From: a virus | Strand: one strand, 5' to 3' | IMG/VR virus record: IMGVR_UViG_3300030061_002247 | Span: 1-64,000 of that record | Length of the DNA stretch: 64,000 bases | In this document: positions 18,397 through 64,000 of the stretch, piece after piece | Layout of the letters: each line of letters opens with the position of its first letter | How positions within the stretch are numbered: position 1 is the stretch's first letter | The notes under the pieces: generated by a model | Databases searched by the model: none | What the model was told of the DNA's origin: nothing | Seen by the model: only the letters and a program-made list of their open reading frames with translations | Made by a program: the position numbers and the translations under genes

Positions 18397-18734
18397 TAAT
18401 TATGGGAGAGAATGTATGGAGCACAGTAGATGGAACGACTTGTAGAGCAAGCGACGTAATTATGAGTGTGGAACACTCTTATGATAAATTAAGGGCTTGT
18501 AGAGATTCTATAATAGAAAAATACGTAGACTACTACCAATCCAAACCACTACTGTACAATTCTCTCACAGATGCACAGAAAACAGAGTTAGGAGAATACA
18601 GACAGGCCCTGTTGGACTTACCTGCTACTGTGCTAGCAGCGGAGGGAAATGTCGTTATAACAGACTTGCCGGATTACTTTCCCGCACAACCTAGTTGGAT
18701 GAGTAGTCACCCTAATGGAATAATTCACACTTAG
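18393..18734 (+). CDS. Tail fibre assembly chaperone-like protein
   Basis: LRACRD...EYRQALLDLP...FPAQPSW matches the phage tail assembly chaperone pattern (R..R...YRQALRDLP...P..P); follows the fibre gene. Confidence 0.7.
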   Translation: MIIMGENVWSTVDGTTCRASDVIMSVEHSYDKLRACRDSIIEKYVDYYQSKPLLYNSLTDAQKTELGEYRQALLDLPATVLAAEGNVVITDLPDYFPAQPSWMSSHPNGIIHT

Positions 18735-19582
18735 ATTAAGACTCCTAGTCTTGTCATTATCTTCTCCAGTCTAGTTTGACTGTATGAGTGTGCTAGGTTG
18801 TATGCATATTCACCTGTTGATGTTAGCCTGTCCACGTGTATGTTCTCCTCTATCGGTATGCCATTGGACAATGCCCATGACACCAAAGACTCCGTTCTCA
18901 GATTACCCTGTGCTGAATCCACGGAGAAGCAACCGCCTAACCCACCTACAGAGCAGTCAAACTGTCTGATACCTGAGTCATAGGCAGCCTTGATGTATTC
19001 TGCACTATCTTCATTCACATGTAGATGTATACTCAGATTATCTGTAATCCTTCTTGCCTTCCTACACAAAGATGTAATGCTTTTGATAGTTGCATTACTA
19101 TCTGTATCACATAGCACAATACATTTTGATATGTCTTTTCCCCACTTTACACAGTCTAAAACGGCTTTTCTAGATACACCCTGACTAAATGCACAACTAA
19201 TGTACAACCTATTTATTGGTATATCCTTGCATTTATTTTGATATATACTCATTATATTTTGATATGTATTTTTTTGATTTGATTTATTGAAATCATCATC
19301 GGGGCTTATCACAACATTCACACTCTCAAGACCTAGTTCTATCGCTCTATCGAAGCCCTTCTCATTCACAACCAACAGGTCTCCACCTGTCTTCCTGTAG
19401 AGTTTACCACTTTCTCTCATTGGTAGTATAGAGGGGTGTACTAGACTACCTACCTCTATGTCCTCTATACCCGCACTCTTCAGTTTCTTGATTAGTTTGA
19501 TTTTCTTCCTCAGGGGAATGGCTCTTGGTAGACCCTGCAAACCATCTCTAGGACTCACCTCGTACAGGGATATAGCATTCAT
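18731..19582 (-). CDS. hmgL: Hydroxymethylglutaryl-CoA lyase-like protein (DRE-TIM metallolyase)
   Basis: EVSPRDGLQ, IEVGS, HLH metal motif, FDCSVGGLGGC and GNLRTE are all HMG-CoA lyase signatures. Confidence 0.85.
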   Translation of the reverse strand: MNAISLYEVSPRDGLQGLPRAIPLRKKIKLIKKLKSAGIEDIEVGSLVHPSILPMRESGKLYRKTGGDLLVVNEKGFDRAIELGLESVNVVISPDDDFNKSNQKNTYQNIMSIYQNKCKDIPINRLYISCAFSQGVSRKAVLDCVKWGKDISKCIVLCDTDSNATIKSITSLCRKARRITDNLSIHLHVNEDSAEYIKAAYDSGIRQFDCSVGGLGGCFSVDSAQGNLRTESLVSWALSNGIPIEENIHVDRLTSTGEYAYNLAHSYSQTRLEKIMTRLGVLI

Positions 19583-54873: not shown

Positions 54874-55247
54874 TTACAGAAAAAAATCAATAATCCAGCC
54901 CCCCTCCCCTCTACCGTGTTGGCAGGAGGCGTTGTCCATAATAGCATGGCTGCACGCATTGGCAAGTCGTCTGTCAGCACGCCCCTCGACCAAGCGTGGA
55001 CTGTGTAGGAGGCGTACTCATGAAGATGCCCAAGATGCATTACAACCAAGGCGGTATGTACTGGCCAGAGAGTAAGAACATACAAGTAGAATGCGAGTAA
55101 TCCTTTATCGTGGCCGGTGTCATCTGTTTGTCATCTCTCTACCTGTTCCAAAATTGACAAAACTCTTTCATGTTTCATAAAGCAGGTGGCATTGGCCACA
55201 CCTAAAAGCCAGCAACGGTTTTATCCTGACCCCCCTTGCGCTTGGGC

Positions 55248-55802
55248 ATGGGTGCATTCGACTCCGCATGGTCACTTCTCAAAAACTTCGATGAGGAGAT
55301 GGACGAATATCGAAGGGTGATGGATGCTCCACCACCAAGGAGAACACCACAGATGGATGATGACCCATTCAGGATGAAACAGCCTGATATGAGTGCCCAG
55401 ATAGAACAGATTCTTGCCGAGATTCAGCGTAGAGAAGGTAGGAAAAACCCTGATTTTCATCACCAAGACTACGATTCGGTCTTTTATAGAAACAAATATG
55501 ACCGAGAAAATCCACAGGATAATCAACTCCTGAACACCACAAGACCTCAGATGAAAGACAGAATGGGGGCTCTACGAGCAGAAATGGAAAGAAGAGCCAG
55601 AAAAAGAGGGTCTCCTGTAGTAGGTGATTCTGCCCCACCAGAAGCAAAAGGTCCTCAACCAATGGGAGCACCGGAGTCTTTCAGTGCTCCAGAGGGCATG
55701 ACTAACGAGGAATATGGTATTATCGACCAGCCGGACAGTAAGTACACCAAAGAACTACAGGGGCAAGCGCTTCAAGACTACATTAAACAAAGGTTTGGTT
55801 GA
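55248..55802 (+). CDS. Leader-family protein (MGAFDSAWSLLK)
   Basis: Start reassigned to ATG 55248; a TTTTAT box lies about 28 nt upstream. Confidence 0.7.
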   Translation: MGAFDSAWSLLKNFDEEMDEYRRVMDAPPPRRTPQMDDDPFRMKQPDMSAQIEQILAEIQRREGRKNPDFHHQDYDSVFYRNKYDRENPQDNQLLNTTRPQMKDRMGALRAEMERRARKRGSPVVGDSAPPEAKGPQPMGAPESFSAPEGMTNEEYGIIDQPDSKYTKELQGQALQDYIKQRFG

Positions 55803-55804
55803 AT

Positions 55805-56134
55805 ATGAGTGTTTTTGACTCTGCATGGTCCTTACTCAAGATGGGTAGGCGTAGTGGAAACAACAGGAGAGGTCAACAAGTCTCCAATCAGAGGCGTTTC
55901 AGAAGACCAATGCAGTTACCACCAGAAGTCATGGAGGTACTAAGTCCTGAGACAAAGGCTAATCTTGAGAGCATGAAACAAAGTGACCCAGAGGCATATA
56001 ACAAGTATCTGATTGAATTGTCTATGGGCTTTAGAGCAAGCCCTCCTCGTAACAGCATGATGCCAGACCCCGGTCAGAGTCAGGTTCGCATACCATACGA
56101 CCCACAAAATGAATCAGGGGTTGAAGGGCAATGA
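55805..56134 (+). CDS. Leader-family protein (MSVFDSAWSLLK), Arg-rich
   Basis: Shared N-terminal motif. Confidence 0.7.
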   Translation: MSVFDSAWSLLKMGRRSGNNRRGQQVSNQRRFRRPMQLPPEVMEVLSPETKANLESMKQSDPEAYNKYLIELSMGFRASPPRNSMMPDPGQSQVRIPYDPQNESGVEGQ

Positions 56135-56628
56135 GTGCTTTCGACAAGGCTTGGTCCTCTCTTCTCATTAAGGGTACGGTTGATGCCATCATGGATGCTG
56201 CATCGTCTCCCGCTTTAGTAACACACGAAGACCACAAAAGAAGAAGTCAAGAAATACACCAGATTCTTGAGGATATAGCGAATCAGCACGGCATTACTAC
56301 GGCTGATATCCATAGACATATAGACCTGTCAGGTCATCCTGATGACCCTAGCGATGCAGTGTATGATGATGTGGCTAGACGAAGGGAAGAGTGGGAGCAG
56401 CAGAATGGAAAGACAAACTGGCCGGGGTACTACGTGACCCATGAGGGCATAGGACCAGACCCCGAACTCAGGCGTGCTGCTGATGAGTGGGAACAAAACT
56501 TCGACCATCCCGGTGGAGACGACCACTTGGAATCGCTTGGTATACGAGAACAGATAAGAAATGCGATGTATGAAATATCAGGACCTGAGTATGATGCTAA
56601 TTACCAACAGAGGATGGGTCAGCAATGA
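56131..56628 (+). CDS. Leader-family protein (MSAFDKAWSSLLIK), acidic/His-rich
   Basis: Shared motif; ATGA coupling. Confidence 0.7.
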   Translation: MSAFDKAWSSLLIKGTVDAIMDAASSPALVTHEDHKRRSQEIHQILEDIANQHGITTADIHRHIDLSGHPDDPSDAVYDDVARRREEWEQQNGKTNWPGYYVTHEGIGPDPELRRAADEWEQNFDHPGGDDHLESLGIREQIRNAMYEISGPEYDANYQQRMGQQ

Positions 56629-56903
56629 GCGCTTTCGACAAGTCTTGGTCGGTTCTGAAGAACCTAGCGCCCACTTCACCCTCTGACCCGATGGGCACAC
56701 GAGCGATAGACTCGATGTTCTGCCAGAGTTGCAAGCAGGGCCTCAATCCGGGCAGTCCACAGTGCGAAAACTGCGGTGCACCTACTGGAAACAGCATGAG
56801 AAACGTCATGGGAGACGGAAATATGCACTCACCGGGGCAGCAGTCCATGATTGAGAGAGCGAGACAGGCCATGGAAGCGCAGAAAAGGTCAGAGGGACAG
56901 TAA
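56625..56903 (+). CDS. Leader-family protein (MSAFDKSWSVLK) with Zn ribbon
   Basis: Shared motif; CQSC...CENC. Confidence 0.7.
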   Translation: MSAFDKSWSVLKNLAPTSPSDPMGTRAIDSMFCQSCKQGLNPGSPQCENCGAPTGNSMRNVMGDGNMHSPGQQSMIERARQAMEAQKRSEGQ

Positions 56904-57008
56904 CCAACTGATACCGAACAGCAAAACCATCGTTGCTAGCCCCATCTTGATTACCAAATCAATCACTACCATTCTAAAACTGTTAAAAATCGCTTCGCTA
57001 ATGCCCAT
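56889..57008 (-). CDS. Possible small membrane protein (39 aa, not in ORF track)
   Basis: MGISEAIFNSFRMVVIDLVIKMGLATMVLLFGISWLLSL; fills an otherwise empty gap. Confidence 0.4.
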   Translation of the reverse strand: MGISEAIFNSFRMVVIDLVIKMGLATMVLLFGISWLLSL

Positions 57009-57084
57009 AACTTACGATTCATCGAGCAAAAGACGGTCTTTTAACTAAACCCTTATTAAAGCAGCACCATACATAGTATTCCCG

Positions 57085-57276
57085 ATGACAGTATCCGAGA
57101 GCGCCTTCGCTGCGGCGTGGCTTCTACTCAAGCATCAGGAGAATGGTGTCGATTTTTCCTCGAAAGAGGACCAATTCATCACTGGGACTATCCTCAAGAT
57201 GATGAACTCCGACGATTTGAGGCTTCAAGAGGAAGCAGGCATGCTTTACGCACGCTATAAGGTCATGAAATCCTAA
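57085..57276 (+). CDS. Leader-family protein (SAFAAAWLLLK)
   Basis: Shared motif; a CTTATTAA box lies about 30 nt upstream. Confidence 0.65.
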   Translation: MTVSESAFAAAWLLLKHQENGVDFSSKEDQFITGTILKMMNSDDLRLQEEAGMLYARYKVMKS

Positions 57277-57623
57277 GAACGAGTGGTTGTGCTTCCAGTG
57301 GAAGCCCCTGACATCATTCTTTGACGTGCTTCTTGCTCCATTCTGGCTGTATCCTGCTGATTTCGGGCTGCGGCCTCTTGTAGGCTACCCATTGCCTGTC
57401 CCATCGGACTTTCCTTCGCCGCATCCAAAGTTTCCTTCATTTCCTTGCCTTTATCGGCTAAATTAGCCATATTTTGCCCAATTTTCGAGTTTTTGGCCGC
57501 TACACCGACTTTTTTAGCGGATTGTAGGCCTTTTGAGCCTAATTTCGCTGCTGCCGGGCCTACTCTGGCCAATCCAGCGACTAGAGCCGGGAGAAACTTC
57601 TCAATGTCGTAATCCGACTCCAT
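57273..57623 (-). CDS. Ala/Lys-rich amphipathic protein, inverted within the cluster
   Basis: MESDYDIEK-FLPALVAGLARVGPAAAKLG...; helical, low complexity. Confidence 0.6.
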   Translation of the reverse strand: MESDYDIEKFLPALVAGLARVGPAAAKLGSKGLQSAKKVGVAAKNSKIGQNMANLADKGKEMKETLDAAKESPMGQAMGSLQEAAARNQQDTARMEQEARQRMMSGASTGSTTTRS

Positions 57624-57676
57624 AACACGTCGGAGAAGCAGAAACTAATTATGGTGTCGCCTTATACGCCGCTAGC

Positions 57677-57916
57677 ATGGGGTTTGAGTTCGATTTGGCG
57701 TTCGAGTCACTCAAGAAGGGTCAATTCGGGATGAAAGGCTCTCAATATATCTCAAATCGACCAAAAGCGAAGGCGAAAGCCAAGGTTCAGCGTCTAGCGA
57801 GAAAGACGAAGAACCGAAAGACGAAGGCTCGCTACAAACGCAACCTAGATAGGGGTAACACACGTCCGAGGATGCGTAGGCAGACAGGCCTAGTCAGAAT
57901 ATCCAGAAGGAGATAG
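57677..57916 (+). CDS. Highly basic leader-family protein (FEFDLAFESLKK)
   Basis: K/R-rich body with a variant leader. Confidence 0.65.
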   Translation: MGFEFDLAFESLKKGQFGMKGSQYISNRPKAKAKAKVQRLARKTKNRKTKARYKRNLDRGNTRPRMRRQTGLVRISRRR

Positions 57917-57921
57917 ATAAA

Positions 57922-58467
57922 ATGAATGCATTCGACACAGCATGGACACTACTCAAAGCAGACAAAGAGAAGTGCCCTTCATGCAATATGTCGAAATCAG
58001 AGTGCATGACTCATAAAATGGGCTGCGGCGGTGAGATGAAGAAGGCATATGTGATGAGAAAAGCCGCTTTCAGACTAAAATACGACTACAACACACTCAG
58101 GAAATCGTACAGAGATGAGTACGAGGACTACTCGGATGGCCCTCCAATGGGTGAGTTCGATATGGCTCAGGCCGTATCCGACCACAATGACGGGATGATT
58201 TTCGATGACCACATGCCTAGGAACGAGAAAGAGAAACAGATACTACACCACTACATGAACAAACTGAATGTTATTCCGGGTTTGACAGCAGAGGAGCAGG
58301 GATTGGATGATGATGACCACCAAATGGCCAGCGATGTGGCTCAAGAGTACTTCGTAGAGCACATGAGGGAAATGGAAGCCATGAACTCAGGCGTTACCGG
58401 TAGAGACAGCGCACCGTCGAAAGTAGGAGTCTCCTCCCCTCAGATACCAGAGCAGCGTAATCAGTGA
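57922..58467 (+). CDS. Leader-family protein (MNAFDTAWTLLK)
   Basis: Shared motif; CPSC...C...C. Confidence 0.7.
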   Translation: MNAFDTAWTLLKADKEKCPSCNMSKSECMTHKMGCGGEMKKAYVMRKAAFRLKYDYNTLRKSYRDEYEDYSDGPPMGEFDMAQAVSDHNDGMIFDDHMPRNEKEKQILHHYMNKLNVIPGLTAEEQGLDDDDHQMASDVAQEYFVEHMREMEAMNSGVTGRDSAPSKVGVSSPQIPEQRNQ

Positions 58468-59111
58468 TGTGTATGAAGGACAAGGGCAAGAAAGCAGGGA
58501 TGACACTGGTTATCGCTGTCGGCCCTAAGATGCCCAAGAAACCCACTGAGACCTCGAAACCAGACGAGAAGGCCATGAAGAAGGCTTTTGATGTTGCTTG
58601 GGGTGTAGTTAAGGCTATTCCAGAGGCAAATAGTAGGTTTTCTCAACAAAATTTGGGAGAACTACCTCATACAATGGGTACATCTTCGGCAGAACCTCTT
58701 CAATCATTCAATGTGGATGATAAATTGGACTTAGAAAACGATTTGAATGAAGGAAGGGCACAATATATGGATGAAGATATGGGTGACCGGAATTTTAGAG
58801 GAAACATTGCCGCAGATTACAGACCTCAAGGTGCAAATGAAGGTAACGAAGAGTATTACAGAGGACTTTTAGAGGAAATGCTACGAGGAAAAATCTCAGG
58901 AAGAAAGGATATGGCCCATGACCCTGAGATGTTACGAGATTACGACCAAAGACAGGGTGAGTTAATGGATAACGAAAGAACATCAGTACTTGCAGAGGGT
59001 ATGGAACCACCAATGCCTCAATCTCAACCTCAATCTGGTGAAATAGGTATAATGTCACCAAGAAATGTTAGAAGATTTAACCGAGGTATGGGTCCTTCAA
59101 CCCCGTTTTAG
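58464..59111 (+). CDS. Protein with an internal leader motif (AFDVAWGVVK)
   Basis: Motif at 58584-58613. Confidence 0.65.
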   Translation: MMCMKDKGKKAGMTLVIAVGPKMPKKPTETSKPDEKAMKKAFDVAWGVVKAIPEANSRFSQQNLGELPHTMGTSSAEPLQSFNVDDKLDLENDLNEGRAQYMDEDMGDRNFRGNIAADYRPQGANEGNEEYYRGLLEEMLRGKISGRKDMAHDPEMLRDYDQRQGELMDNERTSVLAEGMEPPMPQSQPQSGEIGIMSPRNVRRFNRGMGPSTPF

Positions 59112-59119
59112 GGGATTTT

Positions 59120-59896
59120 ATGACTAGACAGACCGAATTAGGTGAATATCACCCTGATTTTCCCAGTAGCCTCGGTCCAGTCAATGAGTATCACGGCACA
59201 ATCGACATGCAGGGCGTTCTCGACCAAGGTATCAGGGGTGGAAACCCGAAAACACGCTCGAAACACTACGTTCCACCCAGCCTAAGGAATGAGGATAGGG
59301 TGTCCTACACCACTGACAATCCAGACCTCGCACGCCAGTTCGCATTGGAAAGGGCCAAAAAGTTCGGCCTGCCTGAGAGCAGCGTGGGTGTAGTAGGCGT
59401 GAGGGGCGGAGGACTGGCTAACCCAGTCCTACAACCAGAGCCTAGCGGTGGTATTTTCAGTGGTACTGAAAGTAATGTCAGGAGTGGAGGCATTCCTAGG
59501 GCCAATCTAGCCCCTATGACGATGAAATCAGACGCTTACGTGCAAGTCACAGCGACTTGTGACTGCTGTTCACCCTCCACACAGGCGTTCGGCACTCTAG
59601 TTGAGGACTATTTCGAGAAGGCCAAGAAGAAATCCAAGCCTTTCCACGGCTACAATCCCAATAGACACCACAAGAAGGGAGGTCTGAATGCGAAAGGTCG
59701 AGCCAAAGCGAAGAGAGAAACAGGTGCAAACCTCAAACCTCCTGTCACTACCAAGCCATCCAAACTCAAACCCGGAAGCAAGAAGGCGAAAAGAAGGAAA
59801 TCCTTCTGCGCTCGCATGGGTGGCAGTAAAGGACCTACGAGCAAGGATGGTAAACTAACCCCGAAAGGTGCAGCATTGAAGAGGTGGAATTGTTGA
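59120..59896 (+). CDS. ART-fold-like domain fused to a DUF6321-like basic domain
   Basis: EYHGT....VLDQGI...VSYTTDNPDLARQFA (ART-like); KGGLNAKGRA...LKPPV...RRKSFCARMGG...ALKRWNC (DUF6321-like, from recall). Confidence 0.6.
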   Translation: MTRQTELGEYHPDFPSSLGPVNEYHGTIDMQGVLDQGIRGGNPKTRSKHYVPPSLRNEDRVSYTTDNPDLARQFALERAKKFGLPESSVGVVGVRGGGLANPVLQPEPSGGIFSGTESNVRSGGIPRANLAPMTMKSDAYVQVTATCDCCSPSTQAFGTLVEDYFEKAKKKSKPFHGYNPNRHHKKGGLNAKGRAKAKRETGANLKPPVTTKPSKLKPGSKKAKRRKSFCARMGGSKGPTSKDGKLTPKGAALKRWNC

Positions 59897-60060
59897 AAAA
59901 GGACAAATGTTGTTGTGGTGCTACTAAGAATAATCCATGTAAATGCATGGAGTTAGGCAAACAATGCTCCATGACTCCACCTCGCTGCCCATGTTACAAA
60001 TTGCTGTATGCACAGAAAAAAGCCGCTGACAAACTAACCAAAATGGTGGGTGTCATATGA
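59893..60060 (+). CDS. Cys-rich microprotein (55 aa, TTG start, not in ORF track)
   Basis: KKDKCCCGATKNNPCKCMELGKQCSMTPPRCPCYK; overlaps both neighbours by 4 nt. Confidence 0.55.
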   Translation: MKKDKCCCGATKNNPCKCMELGKQCSMTPPRCPCYKLLYAQKKAADKLTKMVGVI

Positions 60061-60248
60061 TAGATTCTTGTGGTTGTGGTCACTGCGTCGGCATGGATGG
60101 TGCATGGGACACACTCGAAAAGAAACTCTGTCCAGCAGGTAAAGCCGCTGCAAAGAGGAAGTTCAAGGTCTATCCGTCTGCCTATGCTAATGGATGGGCT
60201 GTACAGTATTGCCGGGGAAAGTTTCGAGGGAAAGGTAAGAAGAAATGA
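60057..60248 (+). CDS. Small basic phage protein (YPSAYA motif, DUF5872-like)
   Basis: AKRKFKVYPSAYANGWAVQ, preceded by MDGAWDTLEK. Confidence 0.6.
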   Translation: MIDSCGCGHCVGMDGAWDTLEKKLCPAGKAAAKRKFKVYPSAYANGWAVQYCRGKFRGKGKKK

Positions 60249-60811
60249 GTACCGATTCAAACTCCCGCTGCACTTGCCACAATACGTTGGTGGTAAAGAA
60301 CCTGAACCGATGGTTCAAGGAGAAGTGGGTAGACGTATCGAGAAAGGACAAGGATGGGAAACACCCACCATGCGGAAGGGGGAAAGCAAAATTGTCTGGA
60401 AAAGGATACCCGAAGTGCAGGCCGTCGGTGAAAGTTTCAGGCGAAACTCCAAAGACTTCTGGTTCGATGTCAAGTGGACAAAAAAGAGCAGCCACAAAGC
60501 GAAAAAGAGCCAAGAAACAGGGGATTGGTGGGAAGCCGACGATTGTTAAGGGTGTAGCAGTCCTCAAAGCGAGAGAGTTGTCCCCAGAAGCCCAACGTCA
60601 TAAGAAGGAATATGACACAAAGTACGAGTCTAGCCCTGAGCGTGTGAAGTACCGTGAAGAACTCAATAGGGAAAGAAGACGACGAGGCATCTACGGGTCT
60701 CACAACCGTAAGGATGTCAGTCACACACAAGGTGGGAGGCTCACGTTAGAGGGGGAGCATGCGAACAGGGCTAGACACTTCAAAAATAGAGGCACTTTAC
60801 GGGTAGTTTAG
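60245..60811 (+). CDS. Basic phage protein (WFKEKWVD, DUF5872-like) fused to an HNH-like C-terminus
   Basis: LNRWFKEKWVDV...CG...YPKCRP; C-terminal KDVSH.....L......NRAR. Confidence 0.6.
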   Translation: MSTDSNSRCTCHNTLVVKNLNRWFKEKWVDVSRKDKDGKHPPCGRGKAKLSGKGYPKCRPSVKVSGETPKTSGSMSSGQKRAATKRKRAKKQGIGGKPTIVKGVAVLKARELSPEAQRHKKEYDTKYESSPERVKYREELNRERRRRGIYGSHNRKDVSHTQGGRLTLEGEHANRARHFKNRGTLRVV

Positions 60812-60864
60812 TACAGAAGGCTTATGATAGCCACCCTCGTGGGGTCTTTCTAGAGGTCACTAAG

Positions 60865-61503
60865 ATGAGCAGACAAGACCCCAGCGATAAATCAGAAATG
60901 AGACTGACAGGATTGATACTAACTCAGTCGGCTCTAGTGGGAGTTGCAATAGGCATCTACGATGCTGGATTGTGGCTACCCGGAGGAACAGGAGCGAGCG
61001 AATACGTCAACGGAATGACATATGCTATGGGGGCATTGGCAATTCAGATTCTAGCATATTACTTGTTCAAGATGTTCTTTGAGGAGCAAATGCAAGAGAG
61101 AGTCAGAATGTCGGAAATGCAAAGACAGAGAGACTACCGCTTCAGAGAGCAGCAATTCAGTTACGACCAGCGTAGAGCAGACATGGAACTACGTATGCAG
61201 GAGATGACATTAGAGAAAGAACTGCTTTGGATGCAACAAAATCCCGGTAAGATGCCACCTTCAATGATGTCAAACAGCCAGTCTGGTATTTCAGGTCTAG
61301 GTGTTGACCTATTCAACACATCAAAACCACCACAACACACAGCAAATGTTACTGCTCCTCAGAGTTTTGGCTTAGACTCCCTCGCAGACGAGATGCTACA
61401 AGAAACTGTTATTCCACCTAGAGACATTTCTAGTCAAACTATACGTTTGAAGAAGGATGGAACGCCAGACCTTAGATATACGAAGGGTAGTGGCAAGGTC
61501 TGA
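60865..61503 (+). CDS. Two-TM membrane protein with coiled coil
   Basis: Hydrophobic LILTQSALVGVAIGIY and YAMGALAIQILAYYLF segments, followed by an E/Q/R helix. Confidence 0.7.
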   Translation: MSRQDPSDKSEMRLTGLILTQSALVGVAIGIYDAGLWLPGGTGASEYVNGMTYAMGALAIQILAYYLFKMFFEEQMQERVRMSEMQRQRDYRFREQQFSYDQRRADMELRMQEMTLEKELLWMQQNPGKMPPSMMSNSQSGISGLGVDLFNTSKPPQHTANVTAPQSFGLDSLADEMLQETVIPPRDISSQTIRLKKDGTPDLRYTKGSGKV

Positions 61504-61763
61504 TGGGTAGAATATTCAAGACACCTAAAGACGACTCGGTGGAGGAAACTCTACGGGCAATGCACCTCGCAAACACGGTTGACAACACATACGAATGGGG
61601 GGTTGGTTGGCTCAGGACAATTCTTGCATCTTTCGGTGCTGCTTTAGCAGTCAGTGCAATGGAGTCTTACACAGATTTCACTCTATGGGGTTGGACAGTC
61701 GAATGGTCATATCAACAAATTGAGGGCTTTGCTGATTGGCTATACTCTAAACTCCCTAATTAG
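61503..61763 (+). CDS. Small membrane protein
   Basis: WGVGWLRTILASFGAALAVSAM; Trp-rich. Confidence 0.65.
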   Translation: MGRIFKTPKDDSVEETLRAMHLANTVDNTYEWGVGWLRTILASFGAALAVSAMESYTDFTLWGWTVEWSYQQIEGFADWLYSKLPN

Positions 61764-61772
61764 GTGAGATGA

Positions 61773-62486
61773 ATGGTAGGTGGAGGAAGCGTACTCGTCG
61801 GTGTAGCCATATACGGACAACACCTCTACAATGCATGGAAACCGAGAAAAGTCGGTATTTACGGCACAAGCATGGTTGGGAAGACCACATTAGACCGCTA
61901 CATGACCACACCCGGTGAGATGGAAGAGATATCAGAGGATGATAGAACAGAACACTTCAAACTAATCACTAGATACATGTTGCCCAAACCGACTAGGAAG
62001 AGAATATCTTGGCAGGGCGAAAAGAGAGTGGTATACTCCGCAGACATAGGCGGGCAAGAGAGGTTCTGGAATCTGTGGATTGACGATATGGTGTCCAGAC
62101 AGGTGGAGTGCGTCATGTACGTGTTCGATGACAGGGCTTTTGCTGGTGGACCTGAGGGTGCAGAGCAAGTTGCCGGTTTCAAGTACCTTGTAGATAGGCT
62201 CATCCAGAGAGATTACAGATACAGAACCCTCAGAAGCAGATGGAAGGGAAAGAAGTACACACCTAGGATGCTAATGTTGGTGGCTAATAAAGCGGATAGG
62301 TTCTTTGACAAGAAGGCTGCTGAACTCTGGCAGCAGAACAGAATAGGCGAACACAAGATATTCGACCCGTTCCGAGATGACCTGATTAGATTGCAGAAAG
62401 CGAGGCTTCCCACAAAGCGTGCTTTCATGGCTACTCGTGTGGGTTGGAACGTCGAACCAACCCTAGTAGAACTCTTGACCTCTTGA
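61773..62486 (+). CDS. Ras-superfamily small GTPase (Arf/Rab-like)
   Basis: G1 GTSMVGKTT, G2 RT, G3 DIGGQERF..LW, hydrophobic strand VMYVFD, G4 VANKAD, G5-like MAT..GWNV. Confidence 0.88.
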   Translation: MVGGGSVLVGVAIYGQHLYNAWKPRKVGIYGTSMVGKTTLDRYMTTPGEMEEISEDDRTEHFKLITRYMLPKPTRKRISWQGEKRVVYSADIGGQERFWNLWIDDMVSRQVECVMYVFDDRAFAGGPEGAEQVAGFKYLVDRLIQRDYRYRTLRSRWKGKKYTPRMLMLVANKADRFFDKKAAELWQQNRIGEHKIFDPFRDDLIRLQKARLPTKRAFMATRVGWNVEPTLVELLTS

Positions 62487-62521
62487 GTGACCTTTTTGAT
62501 GTAGTAGGGTGTGCGACCTCT

Positions 62522-62707
62522 ATGGCTAAGGGTAAGACCACCACCACTCTCGTTCCAACAGGAGGGGGTAGTAATTCACTTAGGACTACCATTCCCATGT
62601 GGATTGTGCAGCAATTTGGTATGACTGCTGGTAGCAAGGTAGAATGGCGATTATCTGCCGAAAATGGGCAAATGTCTATTCATGTGACTCCTGCGGAGGG
62701 TGAGTGA
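62522..62707 (+). CDS. AbrB/SpoVT/MazE-type DNA-binding protein
   Basis: SNSLRTTIPMWIVQQFGMTAGSKVEW matches the S..VTIP..I....GL..GD.VEW pattern. Start reassigned to 62522. Confidence 0.8.
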   Translation: MAKGKTTTTLVPTGGGSNSLRTTIPMWIVQQFGMTAGSKVEWRLSAENGQMSIHVTPAEGE

Positions 62708-63738
62708 TGGTAGGCGGCCTTTTAGACGTACCCGACAATATGTATCGCACAATAACGAGAACTCCGGTGCAAAACCAGAGTCTAAGCAACTTAAATGACG
62801 CAGCGATGCAGATGATGGCTCAACAAGGCAACCCACAATTCAATCAAGCGGCTATAATGGAACAGGCCATTGCACAGCAGCAGATGCAGCAGATAGCGGT
62901 TCAGAAGAATCTCGAAGTCCCGAAAGTAAACTTCTATCCTTCTAATCACCCAGACCCAAGAAAGGCTAGAAGAAAGGACATCAAACAAGCATACAGACTA
63001 CTCAAACCCACAAAGAGGACTCTTGTAGACCCAAGAAGGTGGTTAGGTAGTCCATACAGATACACCAAAGACAGCGGTGTTTGTGTGGTAGACGGCTGCA
63101 ACGTCAAAGAACTAATCGAGCATGACAACCTATATTCGAGAATCACAGACGAAGAGACAGGAAGAAGCCTTTGGGAGATGTACTGGCAGAACCCAATCTC
63201 AGGACAGACCGAGGCATTCTTAGCAAGAAGCGGTGTGACTAGCGGTAAGACTCTCAAGGGAACATACTGCCCTGAGCATCTCCATCTCTACCACCTACTC
63301 TGCAAATGGGAGTCTGCTGAGGAGAAGGAGAATGAAATGAGACCAAGCAGATTCAGAGACAAAATGAAGAAAGGAGTCAGTCTAGTCACTATTCCAGTTT
63401 CCTCATTGCAATCGACCGAGCAGAAAGCACCAGACCTAGTTCAGAAGTACGAGCCTTTCTTCCAAGAGATAGAGAAGGACTCCAATAGAACAAGAGGTAT
63501 CAACGTCTGGCACATTCCTAACCCAGAGACCGGTAGCAACGACATCACCATGGTGCAATTCGACATGAGAATGTTCCATAAAGAGGCTCAAGAGCAGCAA
63601 TTGGCTGCACAACAGGCATTCAACACCGTTCTCAACCAACAGGCTCAAACCTTGAACCCCGCTCCGACTATGCAAGCACCGCCCCCGATAGTGCCTACGA
63701 TAGCAACAACAGCAAATCCAGCAGAGGTGATACAGTGA
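62704..63738 (+). CDS. Gln-rich hypothetical protein with possible Zn site
   Basis: Q-rich ends; CVVDGC...YCPEH. Confidence 0.65.
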   Translation: MMVGGLLDVPDNMYRTITRTPVQNQSLSNLNDAAMQMMAQQGNPQFNQAAIMEQAIAQQQMQQIAVQKNLEVPKVNFYPSNHPDPRKARRKDIKQAYRLLKPTKRTLVDPRRWLGSPYRYTKDSGVCVVDGCNVKELIEHDNLYSRITDEETGRSLWEMYWQNPISGQTEAFLARSGVTSGKTLKGTYCPEHLHLYHLLCKWESAEEKENEMRPSRFRDKMKKGVSLVTIPVSSLQSTEQKAPDLVQKYEPFFQEIEKDSNRTRGINVWHIPNPETGSNDITMVQFDMRMFHKEAQEQQLAAQQAFNTVLNQQAQTLNPAPTMQAPPPIVPTIATTANPAEVIQ

Positions 63739-64000
63739 CATTAGGATTATCTAATCTAGGAGGTCAACAATCGTCATCCACTCTCAGTTTAGGCGCTAGC
63801 CAGTCTAATGCTTTCGGCCAACAGCCTATGCAAAACGGGTATGCTCCTAATGCATACGGTACTTCTCCCTTGATGGGTGGCATTCTAGGGGGTGCAGGCA
63901 TATCCCCCCAACAATACAACGCTCCAGTAGCCCCTCCTTCGGAGACTCAGATTCTAGCCTCGATGCTTGGCACAATCCAACCGATTGACAAGTTCATCGT
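63735..64000 (+). CDS. Low-complexity G/Q/S/P protein, 3'-truncated by the window edge
   Basis: GTG start overlapping the upstream stop; frame open to the window end (MTLGLSNLGGQQSS...). Confidence 0.55.
   Translation, partial: MTLGLSNLGGQQSSSTLSLGASQSNAFGQQPMQNGYAPNAYGTSPLMGGILGGAGISPQQYNAPVAPPSETQILASMLGTIQPIDKFI

Follow-up and report, generated by a model that had tools for sequence, protein, structure and literature searches.

Organization of the locus

We analyzed 64,000 bases of viral DNA (the window), corresponding to bases 1-64000 of the linear, 82,877-base virus record IMGVR_UViG_3300030061_002247, which is rated 77% complete, and we describe here a cassette of five plus-strand genes at the 3' end of the window, designated A, B, C, D and E, in which gene C encodes a small GTPase. 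An earlier reading of the letters by a model that ran no database searches (the sequence-only reading) had proposed that a viral GTPase resembling Arf and Rab is encoded here in an operon with membrane proteins and glutamine-rich proteins, and our own reading of the open reading frames (ORFs) placed the row of genes at the same positions (60865-64000, plus strand; Table 1). The ORFs of the cassette are closely packed, with 4-base overlaps or gaps of 10-54 bases, and it is from this spacing only that we infer an operon. In the genome of the window the cassette heads the plus-strand block, beside many small genes without assigned function.

Judged by its gene content, the window is a group-A-like magrovirus, that is, a tailed virus of Marine Group II/Poseidoniales archaea. 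The minus-strand block encodes a group II chaperonin (thermosome; Cpn60_TCP1, E 8.4e-131), a family B DNA polymerase (PolB), an SNF2 helicase, an RFC-like ATPase and a PD-(D/E)XK nuclease, and the plus strand 3' of the cassette encodes a large terminase (phrog_38, E 3.7e-63) and a portal protein (phrog_18178, E 6.3e-64). Excerpts from Philosof et al. 2017 (PMC5434244) list a thermosome subunit as a trait of magrovirus groups A and D, and an SNF2 helicase as one of group A, and we assigned the window to the group-A-like viruses because it carries both of these group A traits.

Table 1. Features of the cassette and of genes discussed with it. Positions are those of the window unless stated otherwise.
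Feature	Position	Strand	Description
Promoter-like leader	60821..60864	+	TATA-like CTTATGAT word, CCAC..GTGG inverted repeat and GAGGT Shine-Dalgarno-like word before the ATG of gene A
Gene A	60865..61503	+	212-residue membrane protein (ORF reading and hydropathy)
Gene B	61503..61763	+	86 residues; start overlaps the stop of gene A
Gene C (GTPase)	61773..62486	+	237 residues, Arf/Sar/SRbeta-like (motifs, model, closest solved relatives)
AbrB/SpoVT-like ORF	62444..62707	+	Start uncertain: TTG at 62444, or ATG at 62522 (61 residues)
Gene D	62704..63738	+	344 residues; Gln-rich ends and conserved core with a Cys/His cluster (C127, C132 ... C189, H192)
Gene E, 5' part	63735..64000	+	Cut at the window end; ends at base 64376 of the full record, 213 residues
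89-residue protein	64373..64642 of the record (2374..2643 of L085)		Two transmembrane segments; just past the window end, directly 3' of gene E
DUF6321 gene	59120..59896	+	5' of the cassette
DUF5872 gene	60245..60811	+	5' of the cassette
HMGL-like ORF	18731..19582	-	283 residues; end of the minus-strand block

Gene C encodes a putative GTP-binding switch

The motifs that the sequence-only reading had called complete were all found in the product of gene C, namely G1 (GTSMVGKT, residues 31-38), G3 (DIGGQ, residues 91-95, followed by ERFWNLW) and G4 (NKAD, residues 172-175). Both G1 and NKxD are kept in all 134 distinct GTPases from related loci, indicating that the motifs are not a product of chance, and DxxG is likewise kept. 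G1 was also found in 120 of 121 close homologs, and one distant representative has NKAL instead of NKxD. D91 and G94 are invariant (alignment A2), as is T59 (alignment A1). We consider it highly probable, a grade that we give jointly to this claim, to the virus type and to the cassette, that the ORF encodes a real Ras-superfamily GTP-binding switch, with nucleotide binding and hydrolysis as its predicted activities.

The catalytic glutamine that had been pointed out in switch II is present in the window protein (DIGGQERF), but it is not a conserved trait of the family. The residue that follows DxxG is Gln in 96, Glu in 34, His in three and Asp in one of the 134 distinct locus proteins, and it is Ala or Phe in two distant representatives. 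Among 121 homologs at least 71% identical, residue 95 (window positions 62055-62057) is Gln in 67 and Glu in 50, and one sub-family has His; this polymorphism sits inside an otherwise highly conserved switch II. Sar1 has His at the catalytic position and the Q61E form of Ras still hydrolyzes GTP, and most variants at this position may remain competent.

The protein has an isoelectric point of 9.7 and carries two family-specific basic inserts relative to Arf, in which K76, R77, R149 and R151 are invariant and R75 is nearly so (alignment A1). Directly before the first beta strand, the model described below has an N-terminal helix (residues 2-22) rich in Gly, Ala and Val. No 19-residue Kyte-Doolittle window of the protein reaches 1.2, so this helix is better described as hydrophobic or amphipathic than as a classic transmembrane (TM) segment.

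Closest relatives are Arf-type GTPases

An AlphaFold2 model based on the shallow alignment A1 was set aside at a predicted local distance difference test score (pLDDT) of 63.0, and a 26-row alignment that included distant representatives yielded a model with a pLDDT of 89.5 and a predicted template modeling score of 0.87, with the six-stranded, five-helix fold of a G domain. Foldseek matched this model to at least 500 Ras-superfamily small-GTPase chains at E 1e-3 or better, with values of about E 1e-8, and ranking by E-value did not separate the small-GTPase subfamilies. When the Foldseek list was aligned with VIA-align, the first 19 rows were Arf-family entries (Z 17.8-16.1, root-mean-square deviation mostly 2.4-2.8 over 158-164 residues), in the order Arl8b (17.8), Arf6 (17.6), Arl1, Arf1, Arl3, Arl6, GerdArfR1 (17.1) and HodArfR1 (16.6), followed by an Asgard Rag-like protein (15.8), Rab6/Rab5 (15.6) and SRbeta (5ck3_D, 15.0). 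All close structural matches were GTP-form entries. A search independent of Foldseek, against 48,161 representatives, put Arf6 (Z 17.3), Sar1 (17.1) and SRbeta (2fh5_B, 16.4) at the top and Rag, G-alpha and Rab proteins next, at Z of 14.5 or below.

Sequence profiles pointed in the same direction. The best match of the family profile among PDB sequences was the Asgard protein GerdArfR1 (8oun_A, E 8.4e-7), covering the region from the N-terminal helix to the P-loop together with switch II; Arl8 and Arl10 came second (2e-4 to 5e-4), and Rab33B and KRas were weaker. Rows for RecA and EF3 in this search were P-loop-only matches of 17-49 residues and were set aside. The affiliation given in the sequence-only reading can thus be narrowed to the Arf/Arl/Sar1/SRbeta branch, on which the profile, the Z-ranked alignments and the switch II motif agree. 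The Rab identity was dropped, because Rab lies below Arf, Sar1 and SRbeta in both structural rankings (the chain 5ck3_D excepted) and below Arl8 in the profile search.

We also compared the family with the 29 distinct small GTPases of one Asgard genome (G001). A hidden Markov model (HMM) of the viral family gave 26.4, 26.2 and 23.1 bits to the three best Arf-model proteins, which were three of the top four, and 24.1 bits to one ambiguous protein; all others, rows labelled Ras/Rab among them, scored 14.5 bits or less. In a maximum-likelihood tree of 41 rows, comprising 12 viral and 29 Asgard proteins and no eukaryotic sequences, the viral family formed one clade (support 100/100) on a long branch, and the Asgard Arf group was recovered with support of 90/87.

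A sequence-isolated viral family

The GTPase is isolated in sequence space. The window protein had no match to Pfam Arf (PF00025) at E up to 1, no match in PHROGs, PADLOC or INPHARED phages (tblastn), and no phmmer match among PDB sequences at E up to 10; a scan of IMG/VR with P0131 found no pattern match. A word-indexed protein search returned 495 relatives, the best 120 of which were 71-86% identical and all from marine metagenomes. When a profile of 24 relatives was run against 1.84 billion representatives, only 82 proteins, among them many fragments, were found at E of 1e-3 or better. For nine full-length representatives the clusters were looked up, and these lie on contigs of at most 104,477 bases, the four largest being virus-sized (59-104 kb) and the rest short, and the longest contig among close homologs has 150,014 bases. 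In IMG/VR, 172 contigs carry this sub-family, and a second one, 31% identical, is found on 375.

Among 185,579 species genomes, one for each species, only three copies were found, on contigs of 8,011, 8,767 and 16,435 bases (L081, L082 and L083) in bins labelled Promethearchaeati (Asgard), Maricaulis and Parvibaculum. These contigs also carry the cassette, and because the three proteins are 69-72% identical to the window GTPase, we read them as mis-binned viral contigs. The mis-binned viral copy in G001 does not appear in the list of 40 PF00025 matches from that genome. Such an Asgard-binned viral copy could be mistaken for an Asgard Arf gene in surveys of eukaryote-like proteins. Very likely, again as a joint judgment with the virus type and the cassette, the GTPase family is virus-specific, isolated in sequence and closest to the membrane-anchored Arf/Arl/Sar1/SRbeta GTPases.

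The cassette is conserved as a block

The neighbors of the GTPase are conserved as well. In tblastn searches with the window proteins, 80 group-A-like loci yielded gene A at 79, gene B at 79, the AbrB-like gene at 74, gene D at 80 and gene E at 55, in the same order and on the same strand. We then tallied all 145 loci with enough flanking sequence, scoring genes by position and by features (a TM filter, and the pattern Cys...Cys...CxxH for gene D); a gene A with a TM segment was present at 145, B at 134, D at 141 and E at 141. The group-A-like set contributed 79 of these loci (A 79, B 77, D 76, E 76) and the second sub-family 62 (A 62, B 56, D 61, E 61). At the four loci of a third sub-family, A, D and E were found at all four and B at one, the small ORF being present and mostly failing the hydropathy filter.

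Three loci from the two distant sub-families (L092, L167 and L170) have GTPases only 31-35% identical to that of the window, and the order of the cassette is the same: a TM protein with a charged tail, a small protein of 72-79 residues, the GTPase, a protein of 226-258 residues with a C..C ... GTYC.xH pattern, and a Gln/Met/Gly-rich protein. The location differs. In L092 the cassette lies between a 453-residue ORF, read by eye as a capsid protein, and large ORFs read by eye as tail genes, with no family scan made there; in L167 and L170 it follows an ORF of 511-553 residues, read as a thermosome by its likeness to the Cpn60 gene of the window; and in the window it lies 5' of the terminase. The cassette therefore shifts its genomic position as a block while its internal order is constant. 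This synteny, the same in three divergent lineages, is of the kind that the sequence-only reading had proposed to look for across related viruses. We are strongly confident, jointly with the virus type and the GTPase family, that these viruses inherit A, B, the GTPase, D and E as a block of five genes with the GTPase at its core.

Both proteins encoded upstream of the GTPase proved to have the hydrophobic segments that had been ascribed to them. Gene A has 19-residue Kyte-Doolittle peaks at residues 14-32 (1.71) and 54-72 (1.55), after which come an Arg/Glu/Gln-rich helical tail, a low-complexity stretch and the C-terminal sequence KKDGTPDLRY; no Pfam family matched it, and its look-alikes in the atlas were viral hypothetical clusters only. 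Gene B combines a conserved soluble N-terminus (RIFKTPKDDSVEETLRAMH...) with one hydrophobic segment (peak at residues 34-52, 1.45) and a Trp-rich acidic tail, and in the alignment it is best kept over its N-terminal 40 residues; PHROGs yielded no match to it.

The two downstream proteins had been described as Gln/Gly/Pro-rich and of low complexity, which holds for the Gln-rich ends of D and the composition of E, but D also has an invariant Cys/His core. In gene D, C127, G131, T187, Y188 and C189 are invariant and H192 is nearly so (alignment A3). It had no match in Pfam, PHROG, NCBIfam or PDB sequences, a profile search included, and its best atlas look-up (0.77) is a lead only; we regard it as a putative zinc-binding partner. 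In gene E a conserved helical domain (..LQTLSAENI..) lies centrally, between an N-terminus rich in Gln, Gly, Pro, Met and Asn and a C-terminus rich in Gly, and no family match to it was found in Pfam, PHROG or NCBIfam.

The ORF between the GTPase and gene D had been called an AbrB-type regulator. It matches Pfam MazE_antitoxin (PF04014) at 19.7 bits (E 8.5e-4), below the cut-off of 24.7, and a PDB chain described as 'AbrB/MazE/SpoVT family' (7d2n_E) weakly at E 0.026; the label can stand as a weak match, but the gene lies outside the conserved core. No AbrB gene was seen between the GTPase and D in L092, L167 or L170, and it is present in one of three lineage sets only, so that it is a lineage-specific insertion. 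Directly 3' of gene E, the 89-residue protein has two strong hydrophobic segments (Kyte-Doolittle 2.86 and 1.75). Two-TM ORFs of 82-84 residues likewise follow gene E in L017 and L083, and none does so in L092; the 89-residue protein is a lineage-specific third membrane protein of the cassette.

In the group-A-like set the cassette is preceded by a leader (seen in L003, L008, L010, L021, L055 and L058, among others) that consists of a TATA-like word (CTTATGAT or CTTAAGAT), GACC, the inverted repeat and then GAGGTCA, a few bases 5' of the ATG of gene A. When the pattern was searched for in a loose form, the 82,877-base record had a single intergenic match. Of 70 distinct upstream regions in the group-A-like set, 26 contain the motif, against none of the shuffled or coding controls; it is absent from the two other lineages, in which the cassette has no intergenic leader. 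The leader could serve as a promoter and operator specific to the cassette.

Neighboring genes and possible transcripts

The two genes immediately 5' of the leader encode basic, Lys/Arg-rich proteins, one with a DUF6321 match (E 7.7e-16; phrog_10346 and phrog_4689) and one with a DUF5872 match (E 3.7e-10; phrog_6437 and phrog_23735). Their order and fusion state differ among relatives, and the homolog of the DUF5872 gene in L002 has 342 residues. A weak helix-turn-helix (HTH) protein also flanks the cassette. At the end of the minus-strand block, an ORF matching Pfam HMGL-like (E 8.2e-15) is a possible auxiliary metabolic gene of the virus. PADLOC found nothing relevant.

Contigs of related strains, 85-99% alike, from one marine metatranscriptome library (X20) touch 27 of the 30 bins of positions 55000-64000, and no weight is given to the three bins left uncovered. 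Among the contigs, one of 361 bases lies across the junction of gene B and the GTPase, and another, of 4,728 bases, begins near 59666 and tracks the region discontinuously. These contigs come from one RNA run with a small share of words (0.09) and give neither level, strand nor ends; they are a weak hint of expression, and DNA carry-over is a possible source of them.

A possible role in egress

The sequence-only reading had suggested a GTPase-controlled membrane module, serving egress or lysis, a replication compartment or superinfection exclusion. We rank first a GTP-controlled membrane module for late-stage egress, a predicted function that we put forward tentatively and with rather less than even confidence. 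It is ranked first because the nearest GTPases (Arf, Sar1 and SRbeta) act at membranes, because two or three small membrane proteins travel with the GTPase, and because the cassette shares its strand with the packaging genes. Arf, Sar1 and SRbeta all act at membranes through an N-terminal hydrophobic element, a view that draws in part on the Arf preprint cited in the last section. In this scheme, the GTPase in its GTP form would attach to the cytoplasmic membrane of the host through its basic inserts and its hydrophobic N-terminal helix, next to A, a two-TM protein with a long charged cytoplasmic tail, and B, a small protein with one TM segment. Gene D would act as a regulator or effector, with a GAP-like (GTPase-activating protein) role being possible, and the assembly would remodel or breach the membrane late in infection, allowing virions to leave. 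What the data show are the motifs, the fold, the conservation, the synteny and a place in the gene block of the late strand; membrane binding, partners, timing and egress are inferred. The more explicit statement, that a virus-encoded Arf/Sar-like switch is recruited by A and B, is controlled by D and opens or remodels the membrane for release, is doubtful as a whole. A complex prediction for the GTPase with full-length B returned a score of 0.00 and a mark of 0.32 and, run with no controls, weighs neither way.

An egress module would occupy a gap in present knowledge. The statement in the sequence-only reading that tailed archaeal viruses have no well-defined holin-endolysin equivalent agrees with passages of a review (PMC10791045), in which the components that these viruses use to break open the envelope are called "completely uncharacterized". 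In excerpts from Prabhu et al. 2025 (PMC11706807), holin-like genes are proposed for Adrikavirales, not Magrovirales. We found no description of a magrovirus GTPase or of the cassette in the searchable literature, judged by main texts or by titles and the first lines of abstracts, although the supplementary gene tables of the magrovirus papers may list a GTPase, and the word 'GTPase' does not occur in the main text of PMC5434244, PMC11706807, PMC10160649 or PMC8651126.

Several results weigh against this interpretation. The GTPase falls below every curated cut-off, with Roc at 18 bits against 27 in Pfam and TIGR00231 at 14.6 against 42.5 in NCBIfam; Arf matches occur in six of 26 family members (best E 0.0048), all below the cut-off, and none of the members reaches any Pfam cut-off. 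In the tree, the viral branch lies outside the Asgard Arf clade and joins an unresolved node between the Arf-like and the Ras/Rab-like groups, and forcing a clade of virus and Arf sequences costs 1.06 log-likelihood units (approximately unbiased test, p 0.325), so that such a clade is neither supported nor rejected. On the origin of Ras-superfamily GTPases, which the sequence-only reading had raised, this tree of viral and Asgard proteins gives one viral clade but does not fix its place among the Asgard groups. We read the GTPase as one that looks and would work like the Arf/Sar/SRbeta type and stands outside the curated Arf family. The N-terminal helix is moderately amphipathic (hydrophobic moment 0.22-0.50 and mean hydrophobicity 0.08-0.66 in 12 diverse members) and no TM segment is predicted, so membrane binding by the GTPase is argued from its relatives. 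The catalytic glutamine is replaced in many members, and hydrolysis may differ or fail in some of them. Pfam and PHROG scans revealed no lytic enzyme and no described holin family; holins are very diverse, so the missing holin-family match for genes A and B decides nothing. Nothing in the cassette ties it to egress more than to other membrane processes, and its position in L092, between head and tail ORFs identified by eye, fits a virion or assembly role as well.

Alternative roles of the cassette

The cassette may instead form a timer or checkpoint, which we consider improbable. The GTPase would leave membranes undeformed by itself; it would read the GTP/GDP state of the cell or an assembly signal and gate pores made by A, B and the 89-residue protein, in the manner of a holin/antiholin clock. 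Gene B, with 86 residues and one TM segment, and the 89-residue two-TM protein have the size and layout of phage holins, and the variation of the catalytic position among Gln, Glu and His is as expected if switching, not work, is selected; the absence of a holin family match in Pfam and PHROGs speaks against pores of a described kind. In group A, such a switch might in addition act on transcription by way of the AbrB-like protein, encoded inside the cassette in this lineage, and the HTH protein that flanks it. However, AbrB is missing from two of the three lineages, and a link to transcription is for that reason not a core feature.

It is also unlikely, though conceivable, that the cassette builds vesicles or compartments, bending the host membrane as a viral analog of the ArvA system or of Arf/Sar1 coats, with possible uses at sites of replication or assembly or in vesicle-borne spread. 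The closest solved relatives of the GTPase are the vesicle-forming Arf and Sar1, and excerpts from Mills et al. 2024 (PMC10927574) offer a precedent in ArvA, a GTPase encoded beside a Zn-ribbon protein, much as a Cys/His protein follows the GTPase here. Yet no coat-like protein was detected, and A, B, D and E have no match to DUF2073, DUF2072 or any other family at E up to 1; as DUF2073 and DUF2072 were not matched, the cassette is not an arvABC operon. Tailed viruses, moreover, are not known to depend on membranes when they replicate or assemble.

Superinfection exclusion or host take-over, by which a membrane-bound switch would alter the surface or entry and so keep a second virus from injecting, or would disturb a host GTPase pathway, has in our view a small chance of being correct. 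It would account for membrane proteins encoded with a switch protein, at the head of the plus-strand block beside many small unassigned genes. Genes of this kind are usually variable accessories, which does not accord with a fixed five-gene block whose A, D and E were found at 141-145 of 145 loci, and no PADLOC match was found.

A role in the virion, with A, B and E packaged or located at the capsid or tail (for instance as ejection or pilot proteins whose segments insert into membranes) and the GTPase as an assembly factor, also seems quite unlikely. The intervening position between by-eye capsid and tail ORFs in L092, where no family scan was made, and the location of the window cassette in the same strand block as the terminase and portal genes are what this role would predict, but the cassette moves as a unit, apart from head and tail genes, and small GTPases are not known to occur in the virions of tailed viruses. 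Read by eye, the cassette proteins also carry no N-terminal tag of the AFDxAWxLLK type, a possible capsid-targeting signal, and the ..LYNAWKPRK.. of the GTPase does not fit its spacing.

A recently captured host gene without a special role, with its neighbors there by chance, is contradicted and can be dismissed: a few of the best 120 relatives are named 'GTPase SAR1 family protein' by JGI, which we take to be a generic small-GTPase label, but the profile HMM found no cellular homolog among the 1.84 billion representatives, the only three matches in species genomes are on short, mis-binned contigs of 8-16 kb from unrelated bins, and the neighbors have stayed the same across a family whose members are down to about 22-35% identity. 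The GTPase stands as virus-encoded, as the sequence-only reading had maintained.

If the egress module is real, tailed archaeal viruses would have their first defined egress system and prokaryotic viruses their first lysis or egress system built around a small GTPase, and the module would place Arf-type membrane switching outside Asgard archaea and eukaryotes, as an old viral lineage. The cassette, conserved and of an expressible size (about 3.5 kb) around a recognizable GTP switch, is a concrete candidate for the egress step. Membrane-anchored Arf/Sar-type GTPases would be extended to viruses of non-Asgard archaea, which bears on the spread of such switches before eukaryotes.

Comparison with known systems

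The Arf family (Arf1/Arf6, Arl1/3/6/8 and Sar1, with the Asgard proteins GerdArfR1, 8OUN/8OUM, and HodArfR1, 8OUK) has the Ras-like fold in common with the GTPase, and the switch II word DIGGQERFWNLW resembles that of Arl8 in the profile alignment to Arl8 chains. The viral protein exceeds the Arf proteins in length by about 55 residues and has both an extended interswitch and a basic insert (residues 145-165); it also differs in the glutamine that is not conserved, in a sequence below the Pfam Arf cut-off, and in its host, a non-Asgard archaeon. An N-terminal amphipathic helix, which engages the membrane once GTP is loaded, is the defining feature of Arf according to the 2024 preprint that accompanies 8OUN (bioRxiv 10.1101/2024.02.28.582541). 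The viral helix, directly before the first strand, invites comparison with that element.

SRbeta, the beta subunit of the signal recognition particle receptor, is an Arf-like GTPase whose hydrophobic N-terminal segment keeps it at the membrane. The structural likeness to it (Z 16.4 for 2fh5_B and 15.0 for 5ck3_D) contrasts with a weak Pfam SRPRB match in only one of 26 family members (E 0.089), and no SRalpha-like (SRX/longin) partner was seen among the cassette neighbors in the Pfam scan.

The archaeal ArvA-ArvB-ArvC system can be compared by its partner domains and description, with domain names taken from excerpts of PMC10927574. According to these excerpts, the formation of vesicles is driven by ArvA, a small GTPase of Euryarchaeota whose N-terminus forms an amphipathic helix, jointly with two proteins from its operon; for one of these two, a Zn-ribbon protein, the authors propose a role as a GAP. 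Like it, the cassette joins a small GTPase of the archaeal world with small partners, one of which is putatively Zn-binding; unlike it, A, B, D and the fragment of E carry neither DUF2073 (ArvB) nor DUF2072 (ArvC) in Pfam at E up to 1. The GTPase is probably not a captured arvA either, because the profile search of 1.84 billion representatives found no cellular relatives.

Phage holin cassettes also encode small membrane proteins together in the late region near packaging genes, as does the cassette, which differs from them in having no holin or endolysin family match. We know of no GTPase in any described lysis cassette.

Giant viruses (Nucleocytoviricota) also encode Ras-superfamily GTPases, of the Rab, Ras and Ran kinds, and they were the sole kind of viral match among the BFVD matches listed, 49 of 50 of which name giant viruses and one of which has no name. 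Whereas these giant-virus proteins closely copy families of their eukaryotic hosts, the family described here is isolated in sequence, belongs to a virus of archaea and is accompanied by conserved partner genes of its own.

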